This document shows, piece by piece, positions 22,954 through 42,764 of a stretch of 64,000 nt of DNA; position 1 is the first letter of the stretch; every line of letters begins with the position of its first letter. Under the pieces are notes generated by a model. The model did not search any database. It was not told the DNA's origin and was given only the letters and a program-made list of their open reading frames with translations. The position numbers and the translations under genes were made by a program. The stretch is from Flaccisagitta enflata (taxonomy: Eukaryota): assembly GCA_965153355.1 (NCBI GenBank), contig OZ231126.1:46624001-46688000 (forward strand), written 5' to 3'.

Positions 22954-23802
22954 TGTTACTGAGCAACCTCAGTATATATTTCTAATGCCCTATTATGCTC
23001 CTGCTTTAGCGTTCGCGCTGAGTCCTTGACTGCTTGCTTATGTCTTCTAATAAATACAGCGAAATCTTATCCAAACGAATTCTTTATTAGAAGAAGATAT
23101 CCAAAGCAACGTAGTTTGAACTGTAAAGGACAGATAATAATGGAATTTAGACAGAGACACAAAAGCTATATAGTTAGGCCAGATGCTTTAAGACTCTAAA
23201 AATGTAACATGAAAATGAATCTAATATGTAAAGGAGGCCCAAGTTACCTTGGTTATGCGCTGAGACGGTAAAGAAAAGTATCCAGTATTCTCCAAAATCA
23301 GAGGCAAAGTATGAGAGTAACAATCCAAATCAGTAAATCCGGAGCAAATAAATCGTAATAAATTCGCAGGAGAATCTATCGTAAATGAATAATGCGGAAG
23401 GGAATTTGGCGGCTCTCGACTAATTCTAAAAGTGGTCAACAGAGGGCGCTGAATTCCGCCGCCAAAATCGCCTAAACATAAGGCCCGCTCAAATCTACCG
23501 TAAACAAAAGGCCTCTTCGTAGGTAAAGCGAATTAAAGCAAAGGACGCGAATAAACCGAAACTAAACAGAGAATAAATCTATTCGGACAGACAATAATCA
23601 AATGGGACAGACATAAGGACAGTTCAGACAGACAAAGGACATCAAAATAATCATCAAAATATAAAATCAAAATAATCAACCTGAAAAGAAAAGATTAGAA
23701 ATACCCAAATACCTACCTGAAATATGAACCCAAATTCAATATATATAAACCAAAATAAATCAATACCAATAAGACATGGCCCCAAAACCTTGCTTCACGA
23801 CA
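22954..23802 (-). repeat. 3' LTR (849 bp)
   Basis: Direct repeat of 41918-42764; immediately preceded on the minus strand by the purine tract GGGGGGAG. Confidence 0.96.
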
Positions 23803-23810
23803 CTCCCCCC
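23803..23810 (-). other. Polypurine tract (plus-strand primer)
   Basis: Minus strand reads AAAACGGGGGGAG directly before the TG of the 3' LTR. Confidence 0.85.
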
Positions 23811-24439
23811 GTTTTGACTCAAATTACAATATGTTTTATGCCAATTTGGGGAAAAACTATAACGAAGTCTTGAAGCTCGGTTTTGGGCAATTTTATGTTA
23901 CACATTTGAGATGGAAAACACTGTAGTAAGAATCTTGAGGGATGTTTCTGTCGACGGCTTCACTGAGCTCCTCTGCTCATTCTTGTACAATTATAGATGT
24001 GCACTTATTAGAGTTTATTTGTTTCTGGTGTTAGTAAGTTTCAGGTGTGCACATTGGGTGGGGGGGGGGTGGGACAATTTCAATCTCAATTCTCCGTAGT
24101 ATCAACTCTCGTCGAGTTTCGTCGATGGTGATCGTGGGCACAAAATGTTTAGTCAGCGGTAGTCAGATGGAAAGTTTGTTAGTTGTAAGTGCCACGATCG
24201 AAGTAGATAATCGAGTGACCGCGTGCGCTTTCCGATTGTAAAGTGTAGTCGAACGAAAGTTTGTAAAATGTAAGTGCTACGGTCGAGAAGGAATCGCCCG
24301 TCGCCGAAGGTGAATTATAGTCCGATCGAAGTCGATGATGATTGCGGATTGCGTTCAAACCGCCACCGTACAATGTTCGTTCGTCGAATGAGCGCGGACT
24401 GACCAAGTCCGCCGAAGAAGTCGTATCGTTGAGTGGTCG

Positions 24440-24487
24440 CAGCCTGTGCCCCGCCGAAGCGGGTCCCATCCGGGCGCAAGCAGGCTG
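24440..24487 (-). repeat. Structured 44-nt motif, copy 1 of 3
   Basis: gcctgtgccccgccgaagcgggtcccatccgggcgcaagcaggc; also present at 27416-27459 and 31150-31193. Confidence 0.85.
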
Positions 24488-24549
24488 ACGTCGAAGAGGT
24501 CCATTCCATTCGTCACTACGTCGCCATCGTCGTTGACGTTGTTGTTCCG

Positions 24550-24672
24550 TTGTTGTTTCATTGTTGTTCTGTTGTTGTTTCATTGTTGTTCTGTTGTTAT
24601 CATTGTTGTTCTGTTGTTATCATTGTTGTTCTGTTGTTATCATTGTTGTTCTGTTGTTATCATTGTTGTTCA
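24550..24672. repeat. 20-bp minisatellite (cattgttgttctgttgttat)n
   Basis: Visible tandem array of about 5-6 units. Confidence 0.85.
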
Positions 24673-24747
24673 TTGTTTCTTATCGTTGTTGTGTTGTTGT
24701 CGTTTACATTGGAGGTCGCGGTGCTAGATCCGTTACAGGCGAACGGA

Positions 24748-26555
24748 TCATTGCCGACGACCACCGCTGTCGGAGTTGTCGAGGATGTAAGCGAAGAAGG
24801 TGTTGATGCGTTCCGTGGAGTTGTTGAAGCGTACATGATAGTCGTGAAGTCGTCGATTGCTGATGATACGCTGTCGTCCCCAGTAACAAATCAGCTCCAC
24901 TCTTTCGCGGACGAGCCTTTCGTAGCGATCTTCCCTGTTGACGCGCCTTTGGATGATTCTTCGGAGATGGAAGGCGGCGAAGGCGCGGTAAATTACGCGC
25001 CGATCGTTGCCGTGATAACGGCAGAGGTTAGATTCGAAGGTCATCATACCGGTACGGTCAATGTGGTAGATGTATCGGTCGAGAAGCAATCCCCAGTCGT
25101 TGGTGACGGACGAGTAGCGCCATTCCCCTTCGAGGACGACGAGCGGATCGCGTCGGACGCGCATTCCAAGACCTCTTTTCAAATTGAGCAACAAGAAAGA
25201 GTCCACCTTGAACCACGTCCATACGTCTATCGCGCGTGCGGCGATGCCTCCAGGCGGGGCCCAATATGTCGACGCGTCGTCGCTGTCGTCGTCGTCGTCG
25301 TCGTAGCATCTTGCTCCGTAGAGATGGCGAATACTTTGGACGAACGACACGAACCCGCGATAAGAATATTTGTCCACAAACGTTTTTAGGAACGGCGGCG
25401 CCATGTCCACCATGCGTTCGGTCGAGACGATGTGGACCTTCCATTCGAGATCGAGGATCCATTGGCGAATGCTGTCGCTGAACTCCGTCGCTTCACTTTC
25501 CCAAACTCGTACCGTCGGTCCGCTTCCGTAGAGGTTTCCCATGAAGACGACCTTCTTGTCGAAGCGGAGGACTCGTCGGACAAGTCGCTGCGTTTCCTCT
25601 GTTCCCCAGCGATGTACTAGATGACAATCCGGCAAGTGAGGATTGTAATAAGCGATCGTTTTAAAGGTAAGTTTATCGGAAAGAGGCATTTTAACTTTCA
25701 ATAGTCCACTCGGATTGATTTTCAAGTGCCTAAATTTGGTCAAGTACCAGTGAACATAATAATTATCATTGCGATCGAGAGTTGAGATTCAACAAGTAGT
25801 TTAATATTTAGTGAATGATTAGCAGTCTAGTGAATACAGTATGACCGATCTCACATCAAATAAGCGGTCCCAGAATCGTTGATGTCATATTAACAAGTCT
25901 GGAATTCATTGGCATCGAGTGAATGAATCGAGTGTCTATCTAACATCGAATGAATGAATCTAGAATCAACTTGACATCGAATAAATGAATCTAGAATCAA
26001 CTTGTTATCGAATGAATGAATCTAGAATCAACTTGACATCGAATGGATCCAGCAGGAGATTATTAGTGTTGAATGAATGATCAGTTCAATTTTGAATCAT
26101 TTTCGGATCGAGTCGAGTGAATGATTTTGAGTTCGTGAATGAATTTGTGAGTGGATAAGGCAACAATTGTCCGGTTGAGCAAAGCGTGATAGTTTTTAAT
26201 GTTTTTCTAACATCAACTCTCTGGAGAGTATGCGTTATTCGCCGCCGTCACTTTTCTTCGGGTAGCTAATCCGTCGTCGGTCTTCGGAGGCGCCAACGCA
26301 ATTCTCCCCCCGTCGCCTTCTTTCGCCCACACTCGTCAGCGGAGGATCCTGAGGACGATGGAGTTGAGGGTCAATATTAATATCTATCGTTTAACTATGT
26401 TTCATAGCGTTTATAACGCATTCAAAGAGGGTATCATCGTCACACTCTATCATCGATACGCTTTGCTTAACCATTCTTACCGATGATCTTTCATCGTTGC
26501 CATTCGTTCGCTGACTAGAATTGCTCCTTTCACCGAAGTCGACTATCGTCCCCAT
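24748..26555 (-). CDS. Accessory gene B: main exon 25616-24748, tentative upstream exons 26555-26481 and 26348-26252 (~346 aa, unknown function)
   Basis: The 331-aa ORF has globular, aromatic- and Arg-rich composition and an acceptor catctag|TA. The upstream exons are phase-compatible (TCG|gtaaga..cctcag|GAT; AAA|gtgacg), but the second donor is weak. Confidence 0.55.
25915..26045. repeat. ~31-bp tandem repeat (atcgaatgaatgaatctagaatcaacttgac)
   Basis: Three to four degenerate units visible. Confidence 0.75.
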
Positions 26556-26819
26556 TGTTCGAGATCGAGAAGAAAGTCACCACGGTTTTCGTCGCCAATC
26601 AATTGTTTCAATTCATCTCTATACATCGAGTTTTCTCGCATTCTCTTGGAATGCGTCGTCTGAGTTTTTAATCTCTCTGATCGAGTCTGTACATTTTGAA
26701 TCATCACATCTTCAATGAATCTGAGGAAAATGACCATTTTTACGGTCCGGTGTTATCATCAATATCATTTTTATCATCATCATCATTTTATCTTTATCCT
26801 CTTTTTTTTTTAAATTTGC

Positions 26820-27125
26820 GATATCATCGTCATCGGCATTGTACATTTAACAGCAGTAATGTAATCACAATCATTGTGCCTTTTTTCCTATCTGAACGAT
26901 GAGACTGAATCTGTCAGTCCCTCTGACCGGAAAAAATATAGCGCTGATTTTTAACCACGAAGGTAATCTAAATATACATATCGTCATCGGCATCATATAG
27001 CAAAGCAATATAATCACAATCATCGTGCCTTTTTCCCTATCTGAACGATGAGACTGAATTTGTCAGTCTTTCTGACCGGAAAAAATATAGCGCTGATTTT
27101 TAACCACGCAGGTAATCTAGACATA
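26820..27125. repeat. Tandem duplication of ~160 bp inside the accessory region
   Basis: atatcatcgtcatcggcat...gtgcctttt...ctatctgaacgatgagactgaat...ctgaccggaaaaaatatagcgctgatttttaaccacg..ggtaatcta occurs twice. Confidence 0.8.
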
Positions 27126-27129
27126 CATA

Positions 27130-27380
27130 CCGGCATCAGCCGGGGAAAAATATGTTTGGCCTAAGCCGCAAGAAACATTGGCCGAAGCCACCAGAATTAT
27201 CAGGACTAAGCCTGCCAAAAATAATAGGCCGTAGCCAGACAAGAAAATATCGGCCGGAGCCGCCTAAAAATCAGGTCTAAGCCTGTACTTAAAACTAAGG
27301 CCGAAGCCATCAAAATAATCGGCTAAAGCCGCCAAAAAATCAGGTCTAAGCCTGTACTTAAAATATTGAGCCGTAGCTCA
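27130..27380 (-). repeat. Array of ~11 mini-hairpins (GGC-UNNG-GCC type on the minus strand) with variable U-rich spacers
   Basis: On +: ccggcatcagccgg, ggcctaagcc, tggccgaagcca, caggactaagcctg, ggccgtagcc, cggccggagccg, caggtctaagcctg, ggccgaagcc, cggctaaagccg, caggtctaagcctg, tgagccgtagctca; period about 21-28 nt. Confidence 0.75.
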
Positions 27381-27412
27381 CAAGCATTAAATCAAAGATA
27401 AATCATGAGGGA

Positions 27413-27462
27413 TCCGCCTGTGCCCCGCCGAAGCGGGTCCCATCCAGGCGCAAGCAGGCGGA
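27413..27462 (-). repeat. Structured 44-nt motif, copy 2 of 3
   Basis: Same core with one substitution; closing stem extended by tcc/gga. Confidence 0.85.
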
Positions 27463-27663
27463 CCCCTAAAAAAAAAAAATTTACGAGTATGATTGGATGC
27501 CATTAGGGCTGAAAACAGGCCGATTAGTGATTTGACGATGGATACAAGCCGATTGATGACGATGGATCAAATCTGATGATTGTATGTACATGATGATGAT
27601 GCTTCGAGGAGTGAAGTGCGGTGCTGCCGGCTTCAGGCGAGCCGGATCTGCCGCTACTTCTGC

Positions 27664-30600
27664 TCACTCAAAGTTCTTTCGCAGGTCATAGTAATCCCGC
27701 TTCCTCATGACGACGGCTGGCGGGTCGTGGCCGGGGGGGCGATGGACGTGGCCGCAGGCGCGGATTCCCTCCCAGTTGATGACCATGTGTTCTCCGATCG
27801 CCTTTTCCCATTCCCGAAGTCGGTCGTGGTGGCGGGCGACCCAGGAGGAGGCGTTGCAGACGATGAAGGCGCCTCTCGACCACACGCCGCAGGATTCTCC
27901 GGGAAGCGGTTCCGTGATGACCGGACCTGAAGCGAAGATGGTTCATCTAAATCTAACTGTTCTCCTAAGTCGAGTAAACTTAGGCTTAGATCTAGTTCTA
28001 AGTCTAACGGGTCAAAGCCTAATTCTTCTTCTAGATCTAACTCGACTAGTTCCTCTCTGTCTGTTCTAGGTTTTTCATTTGGTTCTGTCTGATCCTCAAT
28101 CGCTTCTAGGGTGGTATCTTCGTCATCGTTCTCTTCGAGATTCCCTTTTTTTAACTGATACAATTGATTGACTCTTTTTCTCTTTAATTTCCTTTTCTGC
28201 TGTCCTTCGTTCTCTTTCTCGTTTTTGTTCTTATCTTTGTTCTTTTCTTTGTTCTTTGCTTTGTTCTTTTCTTTGTTCTTTTCTTTGTTCTTTTCTTTGT
28301 TCTTCTCCTTCTTGTCCTCTGACGGCTCTATCGTCAACTTCTTCCGTTTTTTCTCTTCTTTTTCACCGTCTGAATTGTTTCTTTTTCTTTTCTGTTTTTC
28401 CTCGTCTGTTTTTTCTGTTTTTTCTTCGTCGGTTTTTTCTGTTTTTTCTTCATCGAGGAACTCGATTCTTCTTCTCTTTGACTCGATGTTTTCTTCTGCT
28501 TCTTCCTCATTTTTCTTTAGTTCTTCCGCCTTTCGTTTTTCTTCGAGTTCTTTTTCATATTTTTCTAGTTCTTCTTCAAAATTTCTAACCGGGCTGGCTG
28601 AGGCTGGATCAACTATTTGGACGGTATACCTTTTGCGGGGCAGAGGTAACCTCGGGAGAGAACGAGCGATTGCGTTTGTCTCCCGGATTTTCCTTGCCAG
28701 GGCAGTGTTGTGTGTTTTCTGCCATTCAATGTTTCTTTTGTTTGTTTCTTCTTTAGCTAGTGACTGTCTCAGATATATAATTCTTCCCTCTGTTTTTTCT
28801 ACCTCTTCATCTAGTTTCTTAGAGTGAGTAGCTAGCTGGTAGTTGTCAAGAAGTTTGCCTGACTTGGTGTAAATGGCCCCTGAATCGGCCTCCTGATCAA
28901 ATGGCCCCAAAGGGGAGATGTGGGTAAACTCGACATTGGGTCTGGTTAAGCCTGACTCTTCAATGGGTTTACCGGAGACGGGTAATGCGGCTCGACGGGC
29001 GTCTTCGGCAGCCTGTCGTCGGTCAGCGGCGTCGAGGGCGGTTCGGCGGCGGGCTGATCGCTTGCGATCCTCCTCCGCCAACCGTTTCGCCTGCTCGGAT
29101 TTGACGGACATGTTGGTGAAGTACTCGCTGGGGCGGTCGAAGTCGAGCTGTCGGCCGTCCCAGTTTTCCGCCGTCTTGACTTGAGCCTTTCGCCGGTGTG
29201 GATTGCAGCTGAGGATCTCGGAAGTCCGGTGTCCTTCGCGAAACGCGTAGTCGATGGTGGACGCCATTTGCTGCGGATTCAGACTTCCGTAAGGTCTCAA
29301 GGCCGCATCTTGCTGCAGAGCGATGTGGACTCGTCGGTCGAACTCGATCACCTTCTCGTCGACTTCTTTCTCGTTCATTCCGCGACCCAGCAAGGCTTGT
29401 CGGACGATGCCGCGATAAACATTCTGATTGGTTACATGAGGCAAAAAGGGGGGGGGGGGTTGTAAACATAAGTTGCTTCCCTGTCTCCTATTGCTCAGTT
29501 ACAAGTGTCCAAACAGGTGAAACATAATTCCAAGGTGATTTATAAACTGTTTTCCCGAATCCTACCACTAGTAAGCATGGTATTAAATTCATAGTTACTA
29601 GAAGAAAAGATCAGTAACAAATTGATATCCTAGGCTCACCCTAATCTTTCTGTCTTGAAGTTTGAGGGTGAACGCTTTATCGCGACGCGCTTGAGAGAGC
29701 CATTTGGGGACGCTCCACCCATGGGATCGCCAGAACTGAATGACTTCTGGGCCGATCTTCTTCTGCCACCGCTCGTTTAGCATCTCGGCTTCGGCGAGGG
29801 TCTTGCACGGCCTCACCTCAGAAAACATCGCGTTCTGTTCATCATGGGTGAGGGCCGCACGTTGGGACGGAGTGTGAGTGGGATGGGCTTCAAGTCCTCG
29901 GAACTCGAGAACTTTCTCCAGTTTGTCGATGTCGTCGTATTGCTCCCATTCTTCCTCGTCGATGTCATCCTCTGGATTGTTGCTGAACACTTGTTTGGCA
30001 ACGTCAACCAAGTCGGCTCGATCGTGGGCGCGATAGGAGATTTCCTTTCTTAGCTGTTTTCCTACAAGGGGAATTTGAGCCAATATTATTTGGTGTCATC
30101 ACCGTCCCCATGATAGAGTGAGAGAGAGAGAGAGAGCAGCGGAGGCGGCGTGGCTGTGCAAGGCTCGTCTGTAGACCTTGCCCGCTCCATGCTTCCTCCG
30201 CTGCTGATGATAAGACAACATTGACAGTGATAATCAGGCAGGTTGATTGTTTTGAATTAGTTATTACTAAACTATGCTAACCATTACTAAACTCTCGATT
30301 TCTAGCTATGCTAGCCATTACTAAACTCTCGATCTTTATCAGTTTTGTTGACTGAATTTGTTACCTGCTCGATCGATTTTGCAGGCATGCCTCTCGATGA
30401 AGTCCAGCGATTCAGGGATGTGGACATACACGGCTGGGAGCAAGACGTTAAATGTGTCCGCGATCGCCTTCCACTCTTCTTCAATGACCTCTTCGTCCTC
30501 TCTTCCCTTCTCCCTCTCTTCTTCCCTGTACCTTTCTCCCCCCGTTATCTTTGCCTCTTCCATCGTTTCCTTCCAATCTTTCTTCCTCTCCAACGCCTCT

Positions 30601-32036
30601 ATTCTGTCCCTAATACCTTGAACTTTCTCCCTTTCCCTCTTCTCCTGCTCTTCCTCACCCTTCTGCTTCTGCCTCATCCTTTCCGCTTCCTTCTGTCTTT
30701 CTCTTTCCGGCTTGTCTTCGGCGAATCTCTGCCTTCCTTCCTTTTCCGCTCTCTCCTTCGCCGCGTCGCGCAGCACGTGTCGTCGATGGGCGATGGCGTG
30801 GAATTTCTCCTCCACTTTCTTCAGTCTTAACTTATTCTCCTCCGCCTCCTTTTCTTCTTCAGGCAGAGCTGCCAACGCCGCCGATTCTTCCCTCATTCTC
30901 TTCAGTTTGTTTCTCCTTTTACGCTGGTTTCGGGTCAGCGGAGGAGGCATGGAGCGGGCGAGGGCTGCAGACGAGCCCTGCACAGCCACGCCTCCTCCAC
31001 TGCCCTCCACCGGCGGCCGAGGGGATGAGGAGCAAAGAGGAGGAGGAAGCGGCGGTGGCTCGACGGTCGACGAGGCGCTGGCGTCGGGTAGCCGGTTCAA
31101 CTTCTCCCGTAAGTCTTTAATGAAGACGTCGCATGGTCGAGAGGGCACAGCCTGTGCCCCGCCGAAGCGGGTCCCGTCCGGGCGCAAGCAGGCTGGCGTC
31201 TCGTTGGGAGAAGGGCAGCGCGGCGTCGAGATGGAAATGGGCGTCGCTGCGTCGATGCATCCCGCCAACATGGTGGACGCCAAAGAGACGTCCGTGGTCG
31301 ACGCGAGGGATGAAGTCGACGACGCCGGCGACGGATCAGGGGGAGGCATCATGAACGGCTGGAGATCGTGGCGGCGTTGAAGGGGGCGTCCTTTGGAGTA
31401 AGAGGAAAGGTTTTAGAGGCAAAAATATACATCGGGTGTAAGGCACGCGAGAAAATCGTCAACACAGTGGCTTACAAGAAAGATGACATCGAAAACGCAC
31501 TGAGAACAGGGTTCATATCGCTAATTATTCTTAAAGATTGCTTAACATGAGTGAATTGTGATTTATTAGGTGAAATGAGTGATTTCCTTGATCGTTAGGT
31601 TACAGGCTCGAATGACTCAGACACTGTGATTGTGGAAGGATCACATATTGATTAGTGGGAGTGACTTCTCACCTTTATGACGGAATGAGGGCACTTGACG
31701 CTGTGGCCGTGGTGGCGAATTGCGGCCCGTCAAGGCTTTGTGGCGGGGCACGCGGGGGGCTTTGAAGCCGTCCAAGGTTTGAGGCGGGAACATCACCGGT
31801 CTTTTCGCTTTGACCACCGGTTCCGCCGGCACTTCTTCCTCCGCTTCCGCCTCCTCGCCCGCGACGCTCTCCTTCAGCCAATCGTCCACCTGCTGGCGCT
31901 TATTCTCCCGTTGCTGTCGATGGTACGACCGCTCTTCATCTTGCTTCCTTTCGCTCTGGAATCGGTTGAAGCGGACTTCGTCCTCTTCGTCGTCGCTGAC
32001 CTGTCGGTCATGCATCGATCGATTTGGAGACGACAT
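27664..32036 (-). CDS. Accessory gene A: spliced, ~841-aa charged/proline-rich protein of unknown function. Exons 32036-31673, 31390-30365, 30061-29640, 29423-28973, 27926-27664; the last intron may be retained, giving a stop at 27705.
   Basis: Separate ORF-track ORFs (131, 337, 161, 579, 73 aa) join in frame at GT-AG sites with matching phases: AAG|gtgaga..ccaaag|GA, CAG|gtaaca..ttgtag|GA, AGG|gtgagc..aatcag|AAT, CCG|gtaaac..cttcag|GT. Exons are GC/CpG-rich and introns more AT-rich. No recognisable domain. Confidence 0.7.
31148..31195 (-). repeat. Structured 44-nt motif, copy 3 of 3 (inside a coding exon of accessory gene A)
   Basis: Same core with one loop substitution; translated as PACLRPDGTRFGGAQA. 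Confidence 0.85.
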
Positions 32037-32470
32037 GACGACAATAGCGGCGAAGGATAATCGAATTTCGCTTTCCGAAGATAATTCAGTTCAAAAATGG
32101 TTAACAATTTCTTCGTGGACGTATCGCACGGAATACACTCGTGACAATCACAGAGTGGGGAAGATAATTTCTTACTGAACCTGAGCACGAGGAAGCAAAC
32201 GAGTTTGTAATAGTTTATGTATAACAGTGGCGAGAAGAGAGAGGAAATAATGCAGCAATTCAATAATATCTATCCAACAATGTCTATTATGGTCAGTTGC
32301 AATCTCCGTCAACAGGCAATATCTGTTCTAACTGTCTAAGTTAACAAAAAATGCCAAAATTTATATCGAGCTTTTGATAATAATGGCATGTATCTAGATC
32401 GATCCCCCTCGTCATGGGATTTCACATGAGGGGTCGAAGTTGAAGGTGCGCCCAGCCGTTCTCTCAAAAT

Positions 32471-32699
32471 ATGCAAATTAGTGAACCGGAAGTGACAGCG
32501 GAAGTCGGACCGGAAGTGACGCGTTTCCGGCCACGCCTACTCCGCAGTCGAGGAAAGGGAGATTCTCATCGACGCTCTCCTCTCCTCCTCCCTGATTCTC
32601 GACTTCGACGCCATCTTGGATTACTCCGTCGACGGATTGATTTTCTCCTCCTCGCTCCCGGATCCGAAAGTGCTCGTCTTATTCGAGCTTTCTGATTGG
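32471..32699. promoter_or_regulatory. Candidate internal promoter/enhancer (octamer, tandem ETS sites, YY1, CCAAT)
   Basis: ATGCAAAT 32471-32478; CCGGAAGTG at 32486 and 32510, GCGGAAGT at ~32498, TTCCGG at 32525; CGCCATCTT 32609-32617; ATTGG 32695-32699; CpG-rich; lies between the pol stop and accessory gene A. Confidence 0.5.
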
Positions 32700-33314
32700 T
32701 TGACACGGCTTAGTCGAAATTGATTCTCCAAGCGTATTATCAAGAAAGTGATATCATGGGCTATTACATATGCGTTTCGTATATATGATTCAAAAAAGGG
32801 AAGAACTATAGTTTGAGCGCGTCTACTGGCCTCAGTGAACTACCATCGCTACTGTCGGCTATAGTGAATGACTAATTATGTAATTTTAATGTTCAGACAC
32901 AGATAACCAACTACCGGCAGTAACGAATATCTAAATAGTTCTATCTAACGATGAGGCAAAGATGAAACGTGTTGTTAGTTGTAACAAATGACTGAATGGT
33001 ACACTTTTCATTTGTCAGTTATGAATGACAGTGAAAACCCGGCAATAACGAATGGTTTTGGGTTACGTTTTGCGATGTCTTTAGTAATTAGTTGTACTAA
33101 TATTATTAACGTTCTCCAGTACAACTTAAATGAATTTTAAAAATTGACATCGGACTTATCCAGGGTTAGTAGTCTACAGAGTCTGCTATAGTGAACATTG
33201 TCGAATTCCTAAATGATTGTTGTCGTCGGGGACAGGATGAATGTTGTAACAAGTTTTTTTTAGAGCTTCGATCCTGTTTTCTCCCCCCGTGGAGGACGAA
33301 TTTATAATTCAAGT

Positions 33315-36300
33315 TCACATCTCCAGCAGGATCAAGCTTCTAATGGCGCGGTCGACGATGCGGCCATTGCTTAATCTCACTAGAAAGCGTCGTCCGTGAC
33401 TTTCGTCGGAATTGATGATGCGGGTTATCCGGCCCATAGGCCAATCCTCGCGCGCAGTTGCGATGTCCTCGACCAGGACAAGGTCCCCGGGTTTCACGAC
33501 TGTTGATGACTGCTTCGAACGTTTCAACAGCTGTTGGAGGTAGTTGGCGCGGAATTGCTCCCAAAAGGCGTCGAGCAGGTATTGACTGCAGCGGAATCCA
33601 TGGCGTAGAACCGACGTTTTCTCCGCCTGAGGAGGAAGAATGTGATTCATGGTTGAGGTAAACAAGTATGGGTACAGGAAATGAGCTGGTGTGAGTGCCA
33701 TGTCATCGTCCACATCTGCTGATACTGGGGTTAGCGGACGCCTATTCATTATCGCACTGGCTCCAGACAGAAGCGTCTCGAAATCCTCTAGATCTACATT
33801 CTTGCTACCTATCACTGACCTCAATAATTTCTTGCTAAGCCCTACCAACCTTTCCCAACTACCACCGTAGCTGCCACAATAAGCTGGGCCAAATGTCCAG
33901 GTAAGTTCTAACTTATCTAGTTCCTCACTGAGATTTTCTTTTTTCCAAGCTGCAACTGACTCTTTAATTTCCCTATCTGCACCTCGAAAATTCGTGCCAT
34001 TGTCTGAGAAAATGTGTTTGAGTGCGGGAAACTGGGAATGTATTTTCACCAAAGAGTTAATGATGCTTGAAGTGGTCATGTCTCTAAGTGGGACTAGAGT
34101 GATTGCTCGGGTGGACATGCAACACGCAATCAAGACAAATTGTTTGCGGGTGCCGCGCCCTGTGTGGCGCAAATGGAATGGGCCCAGGCAGTCTAGTGCA
34201 CAGTGGTAGAATGGGGGTACTATGGCCATCCTTTCTGCTGGTAAGTTTCCTTCCTTTTGGGTGGCTTTGTTTTTGGACAGTCTTTGACAGGTGATGCATT
34301 TACTTATGACACTCCGGACTGAATTTTTACCCCCTAGGATGAAATATTTGCCCCTCAGCAGTAGATGGGTTTGCATTATGGTGCAATGAAATTTCTTGTA
34401 ATGGGCTTGGTGGTAATGTCTGATGATGGATTGGACTATCTCATGTGAGCTATTGGGCAGGATAATAGGGAATCTGTGGTTGTAAGGGAGATATTCAGCT
34501 TTAGCTATTCTCCCCCCTGCCCGCATCACATTCGACTCATCCAAAAATGGGCATAGTTTGGCCAACTTAGAATTTTTGATATTCATGTCTTGAATGGAAT
34601 TTGGTGAAAATATTCCCAGTTTGATCAGGCTGAGTATTTCTCGCTCAAATTCTACATTCTGAAGGGCCCTAACTAGCATATTTTCTGCATCTTCTCTTTC
34701 TGAGTCACTTAGGTGAATGATGTACTTATCTGGTTTTTCTATTTTTGTTCTCAGCCTAGTACTCATTACACCCTGTTGTTTGTTTTTAACCCTTTCTCTT
34801 AATTTCAAAATCACACGCTTTATTATCGCTACCCGGCGAATCTTTGTTCTCCATTCTGAGAGCTTACTTGTTGCCTTCAGTGGCCATGGTGCGAAGTCGT
34901 GATTTTGTGCCTCCACGATCGGTTCTTCCGTTGACCCGTAAGCGGCGATGATATTGAGAGCGGCGACGTCAGCCACCAATTCCGCCGGATTTTTGTTTGT
35001 CGGATTGGGTCGAACCGGGGGCCACTGTGAAAGGGGTAAAGAGAGAAAGGGCGGGCCTTGATGAAAAATATGCCATTTTTTGGTATCATTGGCTTTAATT
35101 CCTTCGGACGCGAGGTCCGCAGGATTCATTAAGGTGGGGCAATGGCGCCATTCAGATAAAGGTGACAATGATCTGATACACTTGACGCGGAAATTTTCAA
35201 ACGTTCTGAACCTTTTCGTAAAATTATTTAGCCACCCTAAAACAGTGAGTGAATCCGAAAAGATAAAGATGTCCTCAAATTCTTCCCCTGCATCCCTGAC
35301 TAACGTATCTCTCCATTGGGCGGCCACTTTGGCCGCGCACAATTCTAGCCTGGGGATGCTGTCTGAATGTGGGATAGCCCCCTTAGTTGGGTTAAGCATC
35401 ATATTGGTCGGCACGACATGCGCCTTACCGACCAAAAAGGAAACACTAATTTTATCTTCAGCTCCTCTCTGGTAACGGCGTAGGTAACTACACATCCCGT
35501 AGCCGTCCTTTGAGGCGTCACAAAAAAGAACTAGCTGACAGACTGAATGTTCCATACCCAAGGGGTTGGTCCACCTGCTTATCTTAATTTTCTTTAAATG
35601 GACTATTGTCTGTTGCCATTTAACTACGTCATTTTTCATCTCAGGGGTGAGGGCAGTTTTCCAGGGAATAGTGTCAGAGCTAATTTTTTGAAACAATAGC
35701 TTTCCTGGTAAAAGCCAGGGGCTTACCAACCCTATTGGGTCATACACTGACGCCACAAAGCTAAGTAGGTCTCGCTTAGTAACTATTTCCCTGTCTGGTT
35801 TGGTCCCTACCCTGACATTCATGACATCTTCTTCGAATGAGTAGCCTAGACCTAATACCTTGTCGCTTAGATCGGACTCATTCAGAAATTCTTTAGCACA
35901 ACTTTCTGTGTACCCGTTATTTAGGATACTCACCAATTCCGACGGTGATAGTTGAGCTTCTTGTTCTTCATCATCTGGATCCCCATCTTCATCTTCATCT
36001 GGATCCGCATCTTCCACTGGGGGCGTCGACGGGGTTGGGGGAGGTGCGCGGTGCTCCCCCAGACCACAGGCGGGCTGGCGCGTGCCGCGCCCTCCCGGAC
36101 ATCCGTGACCGCCCTTCGATGGTTCTGCATTTGCGCTTTGGCCCTTTGCCGTCTCGACTTGTGCCGGAGTAGCGACCTCCACGTTGGCGTTATCTCTGTC
36201 AAGAGGGGTAAGGGAAAGAGAGGATGGTAAATCAAGGTCGGGAAAATTCGACTTCCACTTGCATATATCCATGCCCCCTAATTTAAGCACTGCAGTTATT

Positions 36301-37757
36301 TCTGATTTTATCCTCCTAGCTGTCTCTTTATCATCTGTACTCTCTAGCAAGTCATCCACGTACATGGCGTAGAGTAACGCCAAGTACGTGTCTACACTAA
36401 TCTTGTCCTTATGTGTTTCTGCGTGAAGCTTGAGGATAAAATTGGAGATGGTGGGTGATGAAGTCACGCCGAACATATGGCGCAAACTTTCAATCATTAC
36501 CACCTTCTCCATGGTCTCGTCAGACCACCAAGGATAGCGCAAGGCTGAGCGATCCCTAGGGTCTAACAATATCTGAAAAAAAAAGTTTGTGATATCCGCC
36601 GAAATGGTGTATCTTTTTCGGCGGAATCGCAAAATTACTTTTATTAGGCCATTCAAAATGTCAGGACCGCTAAACAAGTATTTATTCAAAAAATGAGGAC
36701 CGACTCTGGAAGCGGCGTCCTGACAAATCCGGAATTTTCCGGGTTTGTCAGGTTTAACTACAATATGATTTGGCAAATAACAGACAACATTTTCGGGGGG
36801 GGCGTCTAATGTGTCTATTATCCGCGCATGCCCCGCTTCCAGAGTCATCCTCATCTGTTTAAAGGATCCCTCTTTGAGGGTCGGGTTTAGTCTAAATTTG
36901 CGTTCCAGTTTTGAATGGCGGTTCATGGTCATTTTGTAAAAATCTATGGTTTTGAACAGGTCAGCGGTGGGTTGGCGCCCTAAACGCCATGGCATGGTGA
37001 TTTCCCACCTTCCTTCTTCTTCTACAAATCTAGCTGATTCCTGCATCATCTTTAAACTCTGTTCATCTTCAACTGATCTATGTGTCATCTCTTGAGGAAA
37101 TAGCTCGAAGTCCCTACAGATGAAATCCTGTCTGAACATTCTATTTATCATATTTGCCAGGGTGATGGTTTCAGCACTAATGGTCATGATGTTGTTAGCC
37201 TGAATATCATTTTCATCATCTTCCTCTTCATTGTCATTTAAAATTCTGGGGCCTATAATCGCATGGCCAAATTTTGTTCCCAGTGCTAAGGGCTCGTCAT
37301 GTTTGCCCAGGCGGTTATCTCCCGTGCAAAAATAATATGCGTACTTAGCATCAAGCAACAGATTAATTTCTTTATCTTCTAATTCACATATTTTCAGATC
37401 CTTTAAATGCTCAAAACAACTCAATTCGCTTTGGGTGGGGGGTTTTTCTGTTTCTGTAGATAATTGGCTACCAATAAGGGCGTTTTCTACTTTTATTTCA
37501 AAGGTGTTACTCAAATTAGTAACTTTGAAGGAAGTGATTTGTCTTGTAGCATTTGAGGAACTGTCAAAGGTGTTTAATTTAACTGAAATTGATTTTCTGG
37601 GTGCATTTAACTCATTGCAAAGTGACTCAGTTACGGCGCTTGTGTTAGCGCCGGTATCTATGAGTGCGTAAGTGGGGCGTCTTTTACCATTTACATGAAT
37701 CATCACAGGTACAATGGGCCTGGTGGCACCGTGACGCCCCACGAACGCAGCCCTCAG
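33315..37757 (-). CDS. pol: Bel/Pao Pol: aspartic protease, reverse transcriptase, RNase H, integrase; in frame with gag after a single TGA
   Basis: YALIDTGANTS (PR); KFRICQDAAS, ADITNFFFQI, FGVTSSP, YVDDLL (RT); LFCDAS, IPRLELCAA, FSDSLTVLGW, NPADLAS (Pao RNase H); CITCQR, LDCLGP, SDNGTNF, GGSWERLV (IN); FWEQF...PGDLVLV...WPMGRI (DUF5641-like). No internal stops. Confidence 0.97.
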   Translation of the reverse strand: MRAAFVGRHGATRPIVPVMIHVNGKRRPTYALIDTGANTSAVTESLCNELNAPRKSISVKLNTFDSSSNATRQITSFKVTNLSNTFEIKVENALIGSQLSTETEKPPTQSELSCFEHLKDLKICELEDKEINLLLDAKYAYYFCTGDNRLGKHDEPLALGTKFGHAIIGPRILNDNEEEDDENDIQANNIMTISAETITLANMINRMFRQDFICRDFELFPQEMTHRSVEDEQSLKMMQESARFVEEEGRWEITMPWRLGRQPTADLFKTIDFYKMTMNRHSKLERKFRLNPTLKEGSFKQMRMTLEAGHARIIDTLDAPPENVVCYLPNHIVVKPDKPGKFRICQDAASRVGPHFLNKYLFSGPDILNGLIKVILRFRRKRYTISADITNFFFQILLDPRDRSALRYPWWSDETMEKVVMIESLRHMFGVTSSPTISNFILKLHAETHKDKISVDTYLALLYAMYVDDLLESTDDKETARRIKSEITAVLKLGGMDICKWKSNFPDLDLPSSLSLTPLDRDNANVEVATPAQVETAKGQSANAEPSKGGHGCPGGRGTRQPACGLGEHRAPPPTPSTPPVEDADPDEDEDGDPDDEEQEAQLSPSELVSILNNGYTESCAKEFLNESDLSDKVLGLGYSFEEDVMNVRVGTKPDREIVTKRDLLSFVASVYDPIGLVSPWLLPGKLLFQKISSDTIPWKTALTPEMKNDVVKWQQTIVHLKKIKISRWTNPLGMEHSVCQLVLFCDASKDGYGMCSYLRRYQRGAEDKISVSFLVGKAHVVPTNMMLNPTKGAIPHSDSIPRLELCAAKVAAQWRDTLVRDAGEEFEDIFIFSDSLTVLGWLNNFTKRFRTFENFRVKCIRSLSPLSEWRHCPTLMNPADLASEGIKANDTKKWHIFHQGPPFLSLPLSQWPPVRPNPTNKNPAELVADVAALNIIAAYGSTEEPIVEAQNHDFAPWPLKATSKLSEWRTKIRRVAIIKRVILKLRERVKNKQQGVMSTRLRTKIEKPDKYIIHLSDSEREDAENMLVRALQNVEFEREILSLIKLGIFSPNSIQDMNIKNSKLAKLCPFLDESNVMRAGGRIAKAEYLPYNHRFPIILPNSSHEIVQSIIRHYHQAHYKKFHCTIMQTHLLLRGKYFILGGKNSVRSVISKCITCQRLSKNKATQKEGNLPAERMAIVPPFYHCALDCLGPFHLRHTGRGTRKQFVLIACCMSTRAITLVPLRDMTTSSIINSLVKIHSQFPALKHIFSDNGTNFRGADREIKESVAAWKKENLSEELDKLELTWTFGPAYCGSYGGSWERLVGLSKKLLRSVIGSKNVDLEDFETLLSGASAIMNRRPLTPVSADVDDDMALTPAHFLYPYLFTSTMNHILPPQAEKTSVLRHGFRCSQYLLDAFWEQFRANYLQQLLKRSKQSSTVVKPGDLVLVEDIATAREDWPMGRITRIINSDESHGRRFLVRLSNGRIVDRAIRSLILLEM

Positions 37758-40700
37758 TCAGTCAGTATCGTCACCGCCATCTGAAGCTTCATCTGACTCG
37801 CTATCTTGATTCTGTTCTGTCTGTCTTTTGTAATCCCGATGTAATAGCGAGTGATGAAACCCCCCTGTACAATGATCGCACTCAATCCCTGAGTCACAGT
37901 TCTTTGCAATGTGACCATGCTGAAAACATCTGTGGCATAGTCCTCTGGTTTTTAGAACTAAAAATCTCCCATACTGGTTTTTAGCTAGGAACTCTTTACA
38001 GTTGGTAAGCTCATGGAACTTGGACCGGTTGCAGACGGGGCACGACCAATTACCTGTAGTCTGTTTGGAAGTGGCTGCAGATTGGTTGTTGTTCCCTGAC
38101 GCCGAAGAGTCAGTGTTGGCGCCCTTTCTTTGATTGTTGGCGGCGTCGTTTCCGCCTGAGGGGCGCTTGCCGGTTCCATAAGTCTGAGATTGTTGTTTTT
38201 GTTGCGTCTCGAGTTTGGCGGCCGCCACCTGTGCAGCCTTTTGTTGCTGTTGTTTGACCGAAGTTTGCGACGCCGCGGGAGTGTTGTCTGAAGGTGAGGT
38301 ACTGTTGTTGCCGGGAGTAGAGTCATTTCCTCCTTGCGGCTTTCCTCTCCCTCTCCCTCGCTTTCCTCCTCCTCCTCTGAAATTGTTGGTTGTTTCGGGG
38401 GCGCCGTTGGTTGATGTTGGTGACGCCGCTATAGCGTCAATTTTCATTGTCCTGGCGTCTTTCTTATTTTTGGGCGTCTCTTTGGGACCTCCAATCAACT
38501 CTCGTTCGTCCGAGATGAAATTTTGCGACCTGAGGAAAGTTAGGAAATCATCAAAACGGGGTTCAGGTTCCGCATTTTCAGGTTCAACACCCATGACCTG
38601 TTTACCCCTTTCGACTGCCCATCGATTTTTTACAAATGGAAGTTTTTTCCTAATTATCTTGTTTATAGTGTCAGCGTTATCAAAGGAATTAGCCCTTCCT
38701 GAGGCTTTAGCCTTAGTGACCTCCCCTTCTAGGTTGATTCTAAACTTTTTAAAGGCTGCTGTATCCTCCTGTTTAATAGCTGCTCCTGTTAAGAGACGAT
38801 CTATTATGGCTTGAGCTGACCGGGCATGATACCCATACTCCTGTTTGAGGTGACGGATTGCTTTTTGTAGATTCTCTTTGGGGTCCCCCTCTCCCTCATA
38901 GAGTTCACATATTTTAGCGGCGTCGCCGCTAAAATAGTGTTTTAATTCATAACACTGTTCCTGGGGGGCTACTTTTGATTCCTCAGTAACTCTCTTAAAT
39001 CTAAGCAGGGTGGATTCGAAATCTACATTATGATTCCCGTCAAACCTCTGATCGATGGGCAGTCGGTTGGACTTCAAATAATCCCTAGCATTACCAGCAG
39101 TTTGAATTAATAGTAACTGTACAGCAGCATCTTTAGCCGGGTCTGGCACACCATTAGCAGCACCTGACGAACTGTTAACTGTGTTCGATTGATTGCTAAC
39201 TGTGTTTGACTGACTGTTAACTGTGCCTGGCTGACTGTTAACTACATTTGAGGGGTTGTTAACCGCACCTGCTGATGATTGTGAGGAGTCATTTTGGTTT
39301 CCAGGACTGGTAACCGTCGATTGGTAGTCTTCGTCGTCGTCGGATAATGGCGTCCGATCTAATGGCGTTGGGTTCGTTGCGACGGGTGGAGGATTTGTTG
39401 CTGCCGGGAGCGAGGGCGCCGCCGCGGGAATCGAGTTCGCCGCCGCAGCTGATGTAGGACTCACTCCCGCTGGAATCGGGTTTGCCGGCGCGGTCATCGC
39501 CTGTGGGACCGAATTAGATTGAGGATTAATCGGTCCAACCGGATTTACAGTCGGGTAAATGGGCAATGAGGGCGGGGGCATTTGGAACCTTGGGTCAAAA
39601 TAAGGCCATACAAACTGAGGGTTAGGCCAGGGAAATGTTTGACCTGATGGGGGCATCTGAATGACTGGGGGATTCACAGGGCTGGTACAGGCTACAGGCG
39701 AGCCTGCCGCTGCCGTGACTCCTCCAGCCGGGTGGAAAAGAGGGTTAGACTGAGGTGCCCTGGGGTTAATTGGATGGTTAATAGGCCCATTTATTCCTGA
39801 TTGGGCTCCGCGCCTAACAGTACTAGCAGTGATGGTTGAACTGCCTGAATCGGATGAATGATGATGATCGGGCTGACCCGACCTGACTTGACCTGACCTG
39901 ACCCGTCCTGACCTTACCTGTTCAGGCTGACCGGTTTGGGTCTGATTGGGGGCTGATGTTTGAATGTTCTGATTTTGACCTTGAATTGGAGCTGGGTAAG
40001 TCTGATCGGGGTCATGGTTAAATTGACTCTGAGGGGTATTGTCTTGCCTTATAACTGGGGTGATAGATTGATTACCGGAATGACCCACTTGAGGCTGATT
40101 ATTTTGGTCAATGGGAATCGAGGGATTAGAGGATTGATTCCTGTCATGCCTAGAGGATCGAGATCGAGGTGGTCTGTCATTACGGTCCGTATTTCTCGAG
40201 CAAGAGGAAATTGAGTCGGTCGGTCTGACCGCTGCCTGATTAGGGTCATTTTGAGTATCTAACCAGGAATCTGTACGGGTTGGACCGACTGGTGCTAAGG
40301 CTGCTCCACCGAGTGGATGTTGGAGCAGATCGCTTAGTTCGCCCACGGCAGCGTTTACATGTCTGCCTATTGACTGCAAGCTGGTATTATGTGCTTGTTC
40401 AGATATCCTAGTCATCTCCTCCTCATATCTTTGAACCCTTCTTTCAAGCCTACCCTTCTTTCTGTGAATTGAGTCATACCTAACACGTAGAATCGAGGTG
40501 GCATTTCCGGCGTTGGCGGTGGCCGGCGGGCTCTCGTCCATAGCGGGCTGATCGAAGTTAGTCCGATTAGAGGCCGTTGATGAGGAGACTAACGAGGTAT
40601 GGTCGGTCATCCCGGATACTAAGGATGTTGCATTAGATCGAGATGGAATTTCGCGGCGTCCGGCGCTGTTATTGCTTTCCGGCGGCGCCCTTTCGCGCGT

Positions 40701-41450
40701 CGTTTCATCGTCTATCACGGACGGCGCCCTCGACGTCTCACTGAAGGCTATGAGGGCTAGTTGAGGTTGAGGCGCCGTTCCAGCGGCCGCCGGCGTCGTC
40801 GCGATGGGCGCTGTAGATGATGCTTCCGGCGCCGGGAGTGCAGGGCGCGCGGGCGGCGCGGGAAGCGCCGGGGAAGCGGTTGGTCGTGTCGGTGCGGATA
40901 GTAACGGCGGCGGCAGTGGTCCTATGAACGGCTCCCTCGGCGGAAGCGGACCTACAGCCGGCGGCGTCGTTTCTAGTAGGCTGATCCGATTGAGCGGCGC
41001 TACTCGCAAATCGAGGGGAAACGGAGGAAGGACTGGTCCAGCGTCTCGATTGATCCTGTTAAGGAATGTACCAGCGATTTGTGGGTCAATTTCTATGACT
41101 GGTGGAAATTCAAAAGGTGGATGGGAGTCTAGTGACATCTGCATCCGACCAATTATACTGATCAAACTATCCCTGTCTGCAATGATGGTAAATTTATCAC
41201 AGATCTCAGAAATGGCTAACTTTTGTACTGTTAACTGAGACCTAAGGTCATTGGCCTGAACCTTAAATTCCTGGTCTGGATGGTCTCGGCCCATGCCAAA
41301 GGCTTGAACGAATTTTTGAATAAGGGCCGTAGACTCTTTTATCAGCTTACGGGCGTGACGACTATCAAAACGGGCAGCAACGTCATAATACATGGCACAC
41401 CCCGGGGGTAGGCCCCTGGGCGCGTCAGGGGGTAAGCCCCCTTCTGCCAT
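37758..41450 (-). CDS. gag: Bel/Pao Gag-like protein, 1230 aa
   Basis: Long ORF with a DUF1759-like core (FDGN...ELKHYFSGDAAKI...LKQEYG) and the C-terminal Cys/His cluster CPVC..H...C / CHRCFQHGHIAKNC / CDHCTGGFHHSLLH typical of Bel/Pao; long P/S/Q/N low-complexity N-terminal half. Confidence 0.92.
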   Translation of the reverse strand: MAEGGLPPDAPRGLPPGCAMYYDVAARFDSRHARKLIKESTALIQKFVQAFGMGRDHPDQEFKVQANDLRSQLTVQKLAISEICDKFTIIADRDSLISIIGRMQMSLDSHPPFEFPPVIEIDPQIAGTFLNRINRDAGPVLPPFPLDLRVAPLNRISLLETTPPAVGPLPPREPFIGPLPPPLLSAPTRPTASPALPAPPARPALPAPEASSTAPIATTPAAAGTAPQPQLALIAFSETSRAPSVIDDETTRERAPPESNNSAGRREIPSRSNATSLVSGMTDHTSLVSSSTASNRTNFDQPAMDESPPATANAGNATSILRVRYDSIHRKKGRLERRVQRYEEEMTRISEQAHNTSLQSIGRHVNAAVGELSDLLQHPLGGAALAPVGPTRTDSWLDTQNDPNQAAVRPTDSISSCSRNTDRNDRPPRSRSSRHDRNQSSNPSIPIDQNNQPQVGHSGNQSITPVIRQDNTPQSQFNHDPDQTYPAPIQGQNQNIQTSAPNQTQTGQPEQVRSGRVRSGQVRSGQPDHHHSSDSGSSTITASTVRRGAQSGINGPINHPINPRAPQSNPLFHPAGGVTAAAGSPVACTSPVNPPVIQMPPSGQTFPWPNPQFVWPYFDPRFQMPPPSLPIYPTVNPVGPINPQSNSVPQAMTAPANPIPAGVSPTSAAAANSIPAAAPSLPAATNPPPVATNPTPLDRTPLSDDDEDYQSTVTSPGNQNDSSQSSAGAVNNPSNVVNSQPGTVNSQSNTVSNQSNTVNSSSGAANGVPDPAKDAAVQLLLIQTAGNARDYLKSNRLPIDQRFDGNHNVDFESTLLRFKRVTEESKVAPQEQCYELKHYFSGDAAKICELYEGEGDPKENLQKAIRHLKQEYGYHARSAQAIIDRLLTGAAIKQEDTAAFKKFRINLEGEVTKAKASGRANSFDNADTINKIIRKKLPFVKNRWAVERGKQVMGVEPENAEPEPRFDDFLTFLRSQNFISDERELIGGPKETPKNKKDARTMKIDAIAASPTSTNGAPETTNNFRGGGGKRGRGRGKPQGGNDSTPGNNSTSPSDNTPAASQTSVKQQQQKAAQVAAAKLETQQKQQSQTYGTGKRPSGGNDAANNQRKGANTDSSASGNNNQSAATSKQTTGNWSCPVCNRSKFHELTNCKEFLAKNQYGRFLVLKTRGLCHRCFQHGHIAKNCDSGIECDHCTGGFHHSLLHRDYKRQTEQNQDSESDEASDGGDDTD

Positions 41451-41908
41451 GATAATTTCTTTTTAACTAAAGTCGATCAGGGGGTTTAGATCCTTAAATA
41501 GTTCAGGCCAAAGATCTTGGGTCAAGAAGGCTCGCGTACCGAGGCCTAACTGACGCCTAAGATACTAAATTCTGTTCTTCCTGGACACGGCGCCCCTCCT
41601 AAGGGATGGGCGCGAGGACTAATTATCGGACGGGCGTGACCCTTAGATGAACAAGTTTCTAACAACGCAGTTTCTCTTATAAATCCTATCTGACGGCCGA
41701 AGCTCTTCCCGGAGGAAAAGCACGGAACGTAATTTAACGAGAATTAGCAATGGACCGGCGCCCGTCGTGAGAGGGGCGCGGTCCTAAATTCGGATCGGTA
41801 AATAAATCTGAGAATTGTACTCGTCGAATACTCACCCACGGAGACGAAGTCTTTGACGTTTCCAAACGCAATTAAGCAAGAGCATAAAAAGAGCGCGCGA
41901 TATCAACA

Positions 41909-41917
41909 AGTTCAAAC
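41909..41917 (-). other. Non-canonical primer-binding site (candidate self-priming site)
   Basis: Minus strand after the 5' LTR reads GTTTGAACT with no TGG; it is complementary to LTR 42076-42084 (minus AGTTCAAAC). Confidence 0.5.
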
Positions 41918-42764
41918 TGTTACTGAGCAACCTCAGTATATATTTCTAATGCCCTATTATGCTCCTGCTTTAGCGTTCGCGCTGAGTCCTTGACTGCTTG
42001 CTTGTCTTCTAATAAATACAGCGAAATCTTATCCAAACGAATTCTTTATTAGAAGAAGATATCCAAAGCAACGTAGTTTGAACTGTAAAGGACAGATAAT
42101 AATGGAATTTAGACAGAGACACAAAAGCTATATAGTTAGGCCAGATGCTTTAAGACTCTAAAAATGTAACATGAAAATGAATCTAATATGTAAAGGAGGC
42201 CCAAGTTACCTTGGTTATGCGCTGAGACGGTAAAGAAAAGTATCCAGTATTCTCCAAAATCAGAGGCAAAGTATGAGAGTAACAATCCAAATCAGTAAAT
42301 CCGGAGCAAATAAATCGTAATAAATTCGCAGGAGAATCTATCGTAAATGAATAATGCGGAAGGGAATTTGGCGGCTCTCGACTAATTCTAAAAGTGGTCA
42401 ACAGAGGGCGCTGAATTCCGCCGCCAAAATCGCCTAAACATAAGGCCCGCTCAAATCTACCGTAAACAAAAGGCCTCTTCGTAGGTAAAGCGAATTAAAG
42501 CAAAGGACGCGAATAAACCGAAACTAAACAGAGAATAAATCTATTCGGACAGACAATAATCAAATGGGACAGACATAAGGACAGTTCAGACAGACAAAGG
42601 ACATCAAAATAATCATCAAAATATCAAATCAAAATAATCAACCTGAAAAGAAAAGATTAGAAATACCCAAATACCTACCTGAAATATGAACCCAAATTCA
42701 ATATATATAAACCAAAATAAATCAATACCAATAAGACATGGCCCCAAAACCTTGCTTCACGACA
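41918..42764 (-). repeat. 5' LTR (847 bp)
   Basis: Begins tgttactgagc and ends cttcacgaca on +; matches 22954-23802 apart from one 2-bp indel and one substitution seen by eye; lies upstream of gag on the minus strand. Confidence 0.96.

Follow-up and report, generated by a model that had tools for sequence, protein, structure and literature searches.

A multi-exon gene with sense-strand introns in the 3' region of a recent BEL/Pao retrotransposon of Flaccisagitta enflata

The window analyzed here is a 64,000-nt stretch of the Flaccisagitta enflata genome (assembly GCA_965153355.1, contig OZ231126.1, forward-strand positions 46,624,001 to 46,688,000), and all coordinates below refer to positions within it. 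Its minus strand carries a complete long terminal repeat (LTR) retrotransposon (22954-42764; 19,811 nt), in the 3' region of which lies a gene read from 32036 to 27664. The explanation that we consider somewhat probable is that this is a selected multi-exon gene, oriented in sense within the 3' region of a recent BEL/Pao element, with introns 1 to 3 kept and a proposed fourth intron that is coding sequence and at most alternatively spliced. The gene travelled inside the LTR element together with its introns. Copying through RNA normally removes introns, and an LTR element with three host-type introns in an accessory gene must control the splicing, export and packaging of its RNA.

The gene resides in a structurally complete BEL/Pao element

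The two LTRs of the element (849 and 847 nt) align with a single mismatch and a single 2-nt indel; they are near-identical and the insertion is recent. The LTR ends are of the TG..CA type (TGT..ACA), and GGGGGGAG adjoins the 3' LTR. Following the 5' LTR, a gag open reading frame (ORF) of 1234 aa precedes the pol ORF, in which Pfam matches were obtained to Peptidase_A17 (E 4.5e-37; 128 bits, cut-off 22.3), DUF5641 (E 5.1e-13), RVT_1 (E 6.3e-08) and Integrase_H2C2 (E 2.6e-06). Since these four domains occur in a single pol ORF, the element is of the BEL/Pao type (Belpaoviridae). From pol to the 3' LTR it extends for a further 9.5 kb, and the multi-exon gene occupies the middle of this stretch, in sense orientation to the element.

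Because the introns sit in a complete element with an LTR pair, TG..CA ends and a purine tract, they have passed through at least one round of retrotransposition. An earlier note on this DNA had claimed that the element keeps sense-strand introns; this holds for introns 1 to 3, which lie inside the structurally complete element and in the same sense.

Introns 1 to 3 resemble ordinary spliceosomal introns

The gene starts with an ATG at 32036 and stops with a TGA at 27666-27664 (Table 1). Its donors read AAG/GTGAGA (31673), CAG/GTAACA (30365), AGG/GTGAGC (29640) and CCG/GTAAAC (28973), and its acceptors ..CCAAAG/G (31390), ..TTGTAG/G (30061), ..AATCAG/A (29423) and ..CTTCAG/G (27926), the slash marking the exon border. 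Joined, the five pieces comprise 2526 nt, that is, 841 codons and one terminal stop. The earlier note had spliced five ORFs into this 841-aa frame through four GT-AG introns. The ORFs, the sites, the phases (1,1,0,1) and the join all stand; the fourth intron does not, as it consists of conserved coding sequence (see below). GC content is 0.53-0.63 in the exons versus 0.39-0.44 in introns 1 to 3, each of which contains stop codons in all three frames. Judged by their sequence, introns 1 to 3 look like genuine, ordinary spliceosomal introns.

Relatives of the predicted protein were found by word searches with exon 4 (two ORFs, 81% identity) and exon 2 (three ORFs, 59-68% identity) and by an every-protein search with a 300-aa query, which returned 13 relatives at E<=1e-3 (34-86% identity). 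All listed relatives are unnamed metagenome ORFs (ENA or JGI assemblies), and no member read in the 10 relative clusters examined bears a protein or annotated-genome name. At the intron-2 donor, similarity stops at ..RAG in all three exon-2 relatives, whose ORFs end 2-14 codons further on. One relative (P0007) matches the end of exon 3, continues through 53 unrelated in-frame codons (the first V, the last Q) and then matches exon 4, while two others (P0019 and P0008) begin with ..Q/ right before exon 4, at the intron-3 acceptor. Together, the insert of P0007 and the starts of P0019 and P0008 indicate that intron 3 has held its phase-0 position in relatives at about 50% identity. In one relative, the exon-2 ORF and the exon-4 ORF are separate and lie on equally long contigs (4861 nt; also 3906 nt). 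Contigs of 4861 nt carry P0025 and P0039, and the longest contig with P0032 measures 8105 nt.

A 72-nt inverted repeat has one arm in intron 2 (30132-30203) and the other in exon 2 (30936-31007). The arms are 89% complementary (64 Watson-Crick and three G-U pairs of 72), with the intron-2 donor looped out. This repeat could affect splicing or could be the trace of a rearrangement.

Table 1. Features of the gene and of the element that carries it
Feature	Position	Strand	Description
Candidate acceptor before gene	32181-32198	minus	pyrimidine tract + CAG; 145 nt before the ATG, no ATG between
Exon 1	31673-32036	minus	first ATG of its ORF
Intron 1	31391-31672	minus	282 nt, phase 1
Exon 2	30365-31390	minus	contains the invariant basic motif and hairpin copy 3
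Intron 2	30062-30364	minus	303 nt, phase 1
Exon 3	29640-30061	minus	last part matched by relative P0007
Intron 3	29424-29639	minus	216 nt, phase 0
Exon 4	28973-29423	minus	relatives at 81-86% identity
'Intron 4' of the earlier note	27927-28972	minus	1046 nt; open, conserved coding extension of exon 4
Exon 5	27664-27926	minus	87 codons + TGA; frame differs from the long exon-4 ORF
Hairpin copy 1	24414-24492 (core 24442-24467)	minus	near 3' LTR
Hairpin copy 2	27388-27466 (core 27416-27441)	minus	about 200 nt past the gene stop
Hairpin copy 3	31122-31200 (core 31150-31175)	minus	inside exon 2
Candidate major splice donor	41830-41838	minus	TGG/GTGAGT; sole GTRAGT in leader; putative exon end 41836
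5' LTR	41918-42764	minus	847 nt
gag ORF	37758-41452	minus	ATG 41452-41450; same frame as pol
pol ORF	33315-37757	minus	1480 aa
Second sense ORF of 3' region	24748-25788	minus	346 aa, no known family
Antisense ORF	24433-25389	plus	318 aa, overlaps the 346-aa ORF, no known family
Polypurine-like tract ACGGGGGGAG	23803-23812	minus	directly beside 3' LTR
3' LTR	22954-23802	minus	849 nt, TGT..ACA as the plus strand reads; pairs with 41918-42764

Sequencing reads and copy depth

Three sequencing runs, X1, X2 and X3, were taken to be of the DNA type (their kind was guessed), X3 being a marine metagenome; all 30 bins were covered, and word depth was counted at >=95% identity. Contigs from X1 and X2 contain all of intron 1 (31372-32055), which is present in an X1 contig, all of intron 3 (29376-29909) and the junction between intron 2 and exon 3 (29766-30165); as they span these introns, the introns stand in independent DNA data. 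Moreover, in one X2 contig (depth 139.9) position 29423 follows directly on 29640, so that exactly the 216 nt of intron 3 are missing (CT..AC on the plus strand). Intron 3 has thus been removed at the predicted sites in some molecules, whatever the kind of the run. If X2 is DNA, an intron-3-less copy exists, as reverse transcription of partly spliced RNA would give.

Several observations weigh against a selected gene integral to the element. In the RNA run of the same study (X10), of which 12,162,974 reads (about 6% of the run) were covered, no read fell on any non-repetitive part of the element, so that these data are uninformative on splicing; the 10 reads that matched did so partially and all at a low-complexity repeat (25271-25306). 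The intron-3-less form is a single contig with 30 letters on its shorter side, from a run whose DNA kind is a guess, and the evidence for intron 1 is confined to its own sequence signals. Over 27601-32031, depth in X1 is 131-768, whereas the adjoining upstream stretch has about 1010-1080 and gag-pol 738-2991; X2 is similar, and in X3 the depth is 0.4-76 over the gene versus 11-91. In X1 and X2, the gene segment is about 2-10 times shallower than elsewhere in the element, and about 5-10 times in repeat-free bins; such low depth at >=95% identity implies that this version of the gene is present in a minority of the family copies. The relatives may be host genes. At the level of the element, GAGAG stands on both outer sides and both flanks are the same (GA)n microsatellite, within which a target-site duplication is unreadable. 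A primer-binding site was not identified, in an analysis that made no tRNA comparison; just past the 5' LTR, the sequence does not start with TGG.

The shallow depth bears on an alternative that we regard as unlikely, though far from negligible: that the gene came from the host or from another mobile element, entered the 3' region of one subfamily as DNA, with its introns, and has since been carried for a few cycles with no role in the element. Besides the shallow depth in X1 and X2, it would account for X3, where the gene is far rarer in four of its seven bins, and for a low-depth stretch that runs from about 27650 to about 32180, near the gene's ends; the ordinary host type of the introns also suits it. 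However, no clean empty-site joint across the gene appears among the 15 joints listed of 22, and over its more conserved sub-stretches the gene is covered to a depth of 423-768 in X1 and of 32-76 in X3. The deeper bins of the gene are those with the most conserved protein stretches, and this, together with the lack of a bridging joint among those listed, fits diverged versions of the gene in other copies but does not prove them. A hairpin motif common to exon 2 and two other sites of the 3' region speaks against a mere passenger too, as does the fact that none of the cluster members read carries an annotated-genome name.

A further argument for a gene brought in from elsewhere is a cluster at about 32465-32530 (minus strand), some 450 nt ahead of the ATG, in which CACTTCCGG occurs twice together with GACTTCCGC and ATTTGCAT. 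We take these to resemble ETS and octamer sites, and the cluster may mark an internal promoter. It falls, though, in a stretch that is common to most copies of the element (bin 32032-32664 at a depth of 1079; 3529 at 32236). Low-depth contigs of X2 and X3 that carry the gene version end at 32176-32182, and at 32236 the X1 depth has reached family level. These ends adjoin the candidate acceptor at 32181, which may be a coincidence.

An RNA-mediated transduction of a host gene does not fit: an intron-less copy would be expected, and introns 1 to 3 are present.

The proposed fourth intron is conserved coding sequence

We next consider the 3' end of the gene. The stretch designated as intron 4 has no stop in the exon-4 frame, which ends at 27707-27705, and reading through it gives a protein of 1176 aa. 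After LPVSG, the stretch is conserved as protein in every relative reaching that far (NYQL.., RRVF.E.V, SP..FEE), the indels of relatives in its K/E-rich part are all in-frame, and the conservation extends to relatives as low as 30-33% identity. Being open and conserved as protein, it is coding and not a constitutive intron.

Past the acceptor at 27927, similarity to the relatives in the exon-4 frame drops. A word search with the exon-5 ORF gave no candidate relative. The wobble position of the exon-5 frame takes 14.5 of 20 and 15 of 20 inferred single-base differences from relatives, versus 14 of 34 upstream, and 13 of 20 differences are synonymous in this frame, versus 13 of 34 in a control stretch. 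In a close copy found in X1 and X2, the four differences in exon 5 comprise two synonymous and two replacing changes (H>Q, I>V), and one of the four puts a stop in the other frame; upstream of exon 5, two of its three differences are synonymous in the exon-4 frame. Selection therefore seems to act on the extension as well as on exon 5, with the reading frame switching at the acceptor at 27927.

Among phase-compatible donors, only that at 28973 (G/GTAAA) agrees with the G[KN] of the relatives; the alternative donors at 28367 and 27980 were rejected, as they are not conserved in relatives. Given that the fourth intron is conserved as coding sequence while exon 5 is supported by the substitution pattern, the 28973-to-27926 splice would be at most an alternative one, joining exon 4 to exon 5.

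Reaching the end of the gene by some other route strikes us as improbable. Such a route could be a short intron (27980-27927), a -1 frameshift near 27930, or exon 5 reached solely by skipping, from the phase-1 donor of either exon 1 or exon 2. It would be economical, in that one mRNA would hold both the K/E-rich stretch and exon 5, which both look selected, and 27980 is phase-compatible. On the other hand, the donor at 27980 is weak (TAA/GTTTAC) and the residue there is D, not S, in relatives P0001 and P0002; inspection of 27960-27900 by eye showed no slippery heptamer; and most relatives retain the G[KN] after LP.., as for a conserved donor G/GTAA at 28973.

Features of the predicted protein

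The gene protein is highly charged (about 20% K+R and about 19% D+E). Exon 2 encodes an invariant basic motif, PLTRNQRKR.NK; the basic cluster of the protein, RNQRKRRNKLKR, has invariant positions, and the 1176-aa read-through form has a Leu-rich acidic stretch. Neither the 841-aa nor the 1176-aa form contains a signal peptide or transmembrane-like stretch, the best 19-residue Kyte-Doolittle mean being 1.23, and an env-like reading is rejected for lack of such an anchor, in agreement with the earlier note. Its further statement that no domain can be recognised is borne out as well. Pfam searches with each exon, with the 346-aa ORF and with 17 family members yielded no family at or above its cut-off, and a PDB sequence search gave a best E of 0.13. 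In the Atlas, exon 3 had no usable match and the 346-aa ORF one chance-level match (0.75). An AlphaFold model of 300 aa, built with 17 sequences, consists of long helices at low confidence (pLDDT 68, pTM 0.26) and returned no Foldseek match against the PDB at E<=0.001; exon 5 folded alone reached a pLDDT of 42. Within the window, no paralogy of the gene with the rest of the element was found beyond the hairpin motif, nor any other copy of the gene.

That the ORFs are a decaying or chance set with no function, or an assembly chimera, is very improbable: no expression was seen in the part of the RNA run that was read, no known domain was found and the folds are of low confidence, but relatives at 30-86% identity retain long open frames in which every indel is in-frame, differences lean to synonymous changes, and independent X1 and X2 contigs cover intron 1, intron 3 and the border of intron 2 and exon 3.

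Candidate RNA signals and a possible mechanism

A GC-rich hairpin of about 50 nt with a CUUCGG loop occurs in three copies in the 3' region of the element, all in sense, with 0 expected by chance, and the flanks of the three copies are unrelated to each other. The outer stem contains one compensatory change, from A-U to C-G. Among the three copies, this single compensatory pair was equalled in 181 of 500 shuffles; the covariation is not significant and serves as a lead only. In one relative (P0003), the peptide over the hairpin matches the motif in two different frames, as if the nucleotides and not the peptide had been kept. A search of Rfam across the window gave no match at the gathering threshold, and for the 3' region only sub-threshold rows at chance level. 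Upstream, the leader donor and the acceptor ahead of the ATG (Table 1) would fit a retrovirus-like subgenomic mRNA.

If the gene is a selected part of the element, the most likely scheme would be the following. Unspliced full-length RNA would be the template for reverse transcription, and the introns would thereby persist. The gene protein would be made from spliced RNA, possibly from a subgenomic species in which the leader donor at 41836 is joined to the acceptor near 32181. Occasionally, a partly spliced RNA would be copied back, yielding copies that lack an intron. The protein itself would be an accessory factor borne by the element and acting in the nucleus on the element's RNA; this nuclear, RNA-directed role is a guess. 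Under such a scheme the element would regulate its splicing and export, as the earlier note had supposed.

A more specific version, which we hold to be doubtful, is that of a 'complex' belpaovirus-like element, whose 3' gene would encode an adaptor comparable to Rev or CERV that binds the threefold CUUCGG hairpin and exports the intron-containing genomic RNA. The arginine-rich motif, the helical and putatively oligomerizing parts and the Leu-rich acidic tail of the protein could be read in this way. Pfam, PDB-sequence and Foldseek searches, in which CERV itself was not compared, gave no homology to a known factor of this kind. If this version were true, host-type introns would have been kept over many cycles of retrotransposition, as intron positions conserved at about 50% identity would show.

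Comparison with known systems

The closest precedent, by analogy, is the five-exon CERV gene of Cer1 in Caenorhabditis elegans. Retroelements must export intron-containing genomic RNA, and CERV, made from a spliced five-exon mRNA, is needed for export of the unspliced genomic RNA of Cer1; it combines a candidate nuclear localization signal with a Cys-rich part and lacks homologues beyond its lineage (PMC10309623). Cer1 is likewise an LTR retrotransposon that keeps sense-strand introns and expresses an extra protein from a multi-exon gene. Whereas exons 1-3 of cerv lie in the frame of gag, the gene described here is situated wholly after pol and has small dedicated introns. Cer1 is moreover of the Ty3/gypsy type and the present element of the BEL/Pao type, and the likeness to CERV is not based on sequence comparison.

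Complex retroviruses, with Rev, Rex or Rem acting through an RRE or CTE, offer a second comparison. They share with the element a leader donor and an acceptor before the extra gene, both of which are candidates here, an arginine-rich motif, invariant here, and a repeated structured RNA motif in the 3' part. Unlike them, the element has no env and confines its introns to the accessory gene, and no homology was found. Control of splicing, export and packaging as set out above is known in complex retroviruses and, more recently, in Cer1.

Splicing of LTR-retrotransposon RNA has been described for copia, BARE1, Bagy2, Ogre and CRR, where spliced RNA has to be prevented from replicating (PMC3735527), and reviews treat the extra ORFs and gene capture of plant elements (PMC7264820) and giant elements with accessory ORFs (PMC6431247). 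Ogre, BARE1, Bagy2 and CRR resemble the present element in keeping a spliceable intron in genomic RNA and in having to avoid the copying of spliced RNA (PMC3735527, PMC7264820). They differ in being plant Ty3/gypsy or copia elements with one intron tied to gag, pol or env, and are not known to have a three-intron accessory gene. Gene capture by maize Bs1 has similarly put foreign coding sequence in sense between pol and the 3' LTR (PMC7264820). Bs1-type capture differs in that a whole gene with introns is carried here; capture at the RNA level would be expected to yield intron-less fragments. Literature searches, which did not cover supplements, brought up no multi-intron accessory gene in any BEL/Pao element.

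Should the gene prove an integral part of the family, it would represent a new, unannotated protein family; there would in addition be a candidate RNA element with which export of unspliced RNA could be studied in a marine invertebrate, and a natural record of intron loss via reverse transcription. Should it prove a passenger, an LTR element would here have moved an intact gene together with its introns, which is unusual.

Other features of the element and the window

A single TGA (37760-37758), followed by CTG, separates the in-frame gag and pol ORFs, and either reflects expression by read-through or is a fresh inactivating mutation of this copy. A tblastn search of pol against phages gave no match. 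Outside 22954-42764, the window consists mostly of (GA)n, (CA)n and other short tandem repeats, with no long non-repetitive ORF and no second copy of the element in these flanks. The 10-mer ACGGGGGGAG beside the 3' LTR also occurs at 33290-33281, right after the pol stop, so that the two copies bracket the extra region of 9.5 kb. Near the 3' LTR, the overlapping 346-aa and 318-aa ORFs lie where the 3' region has its greatest depth and is shared most widely among copies.

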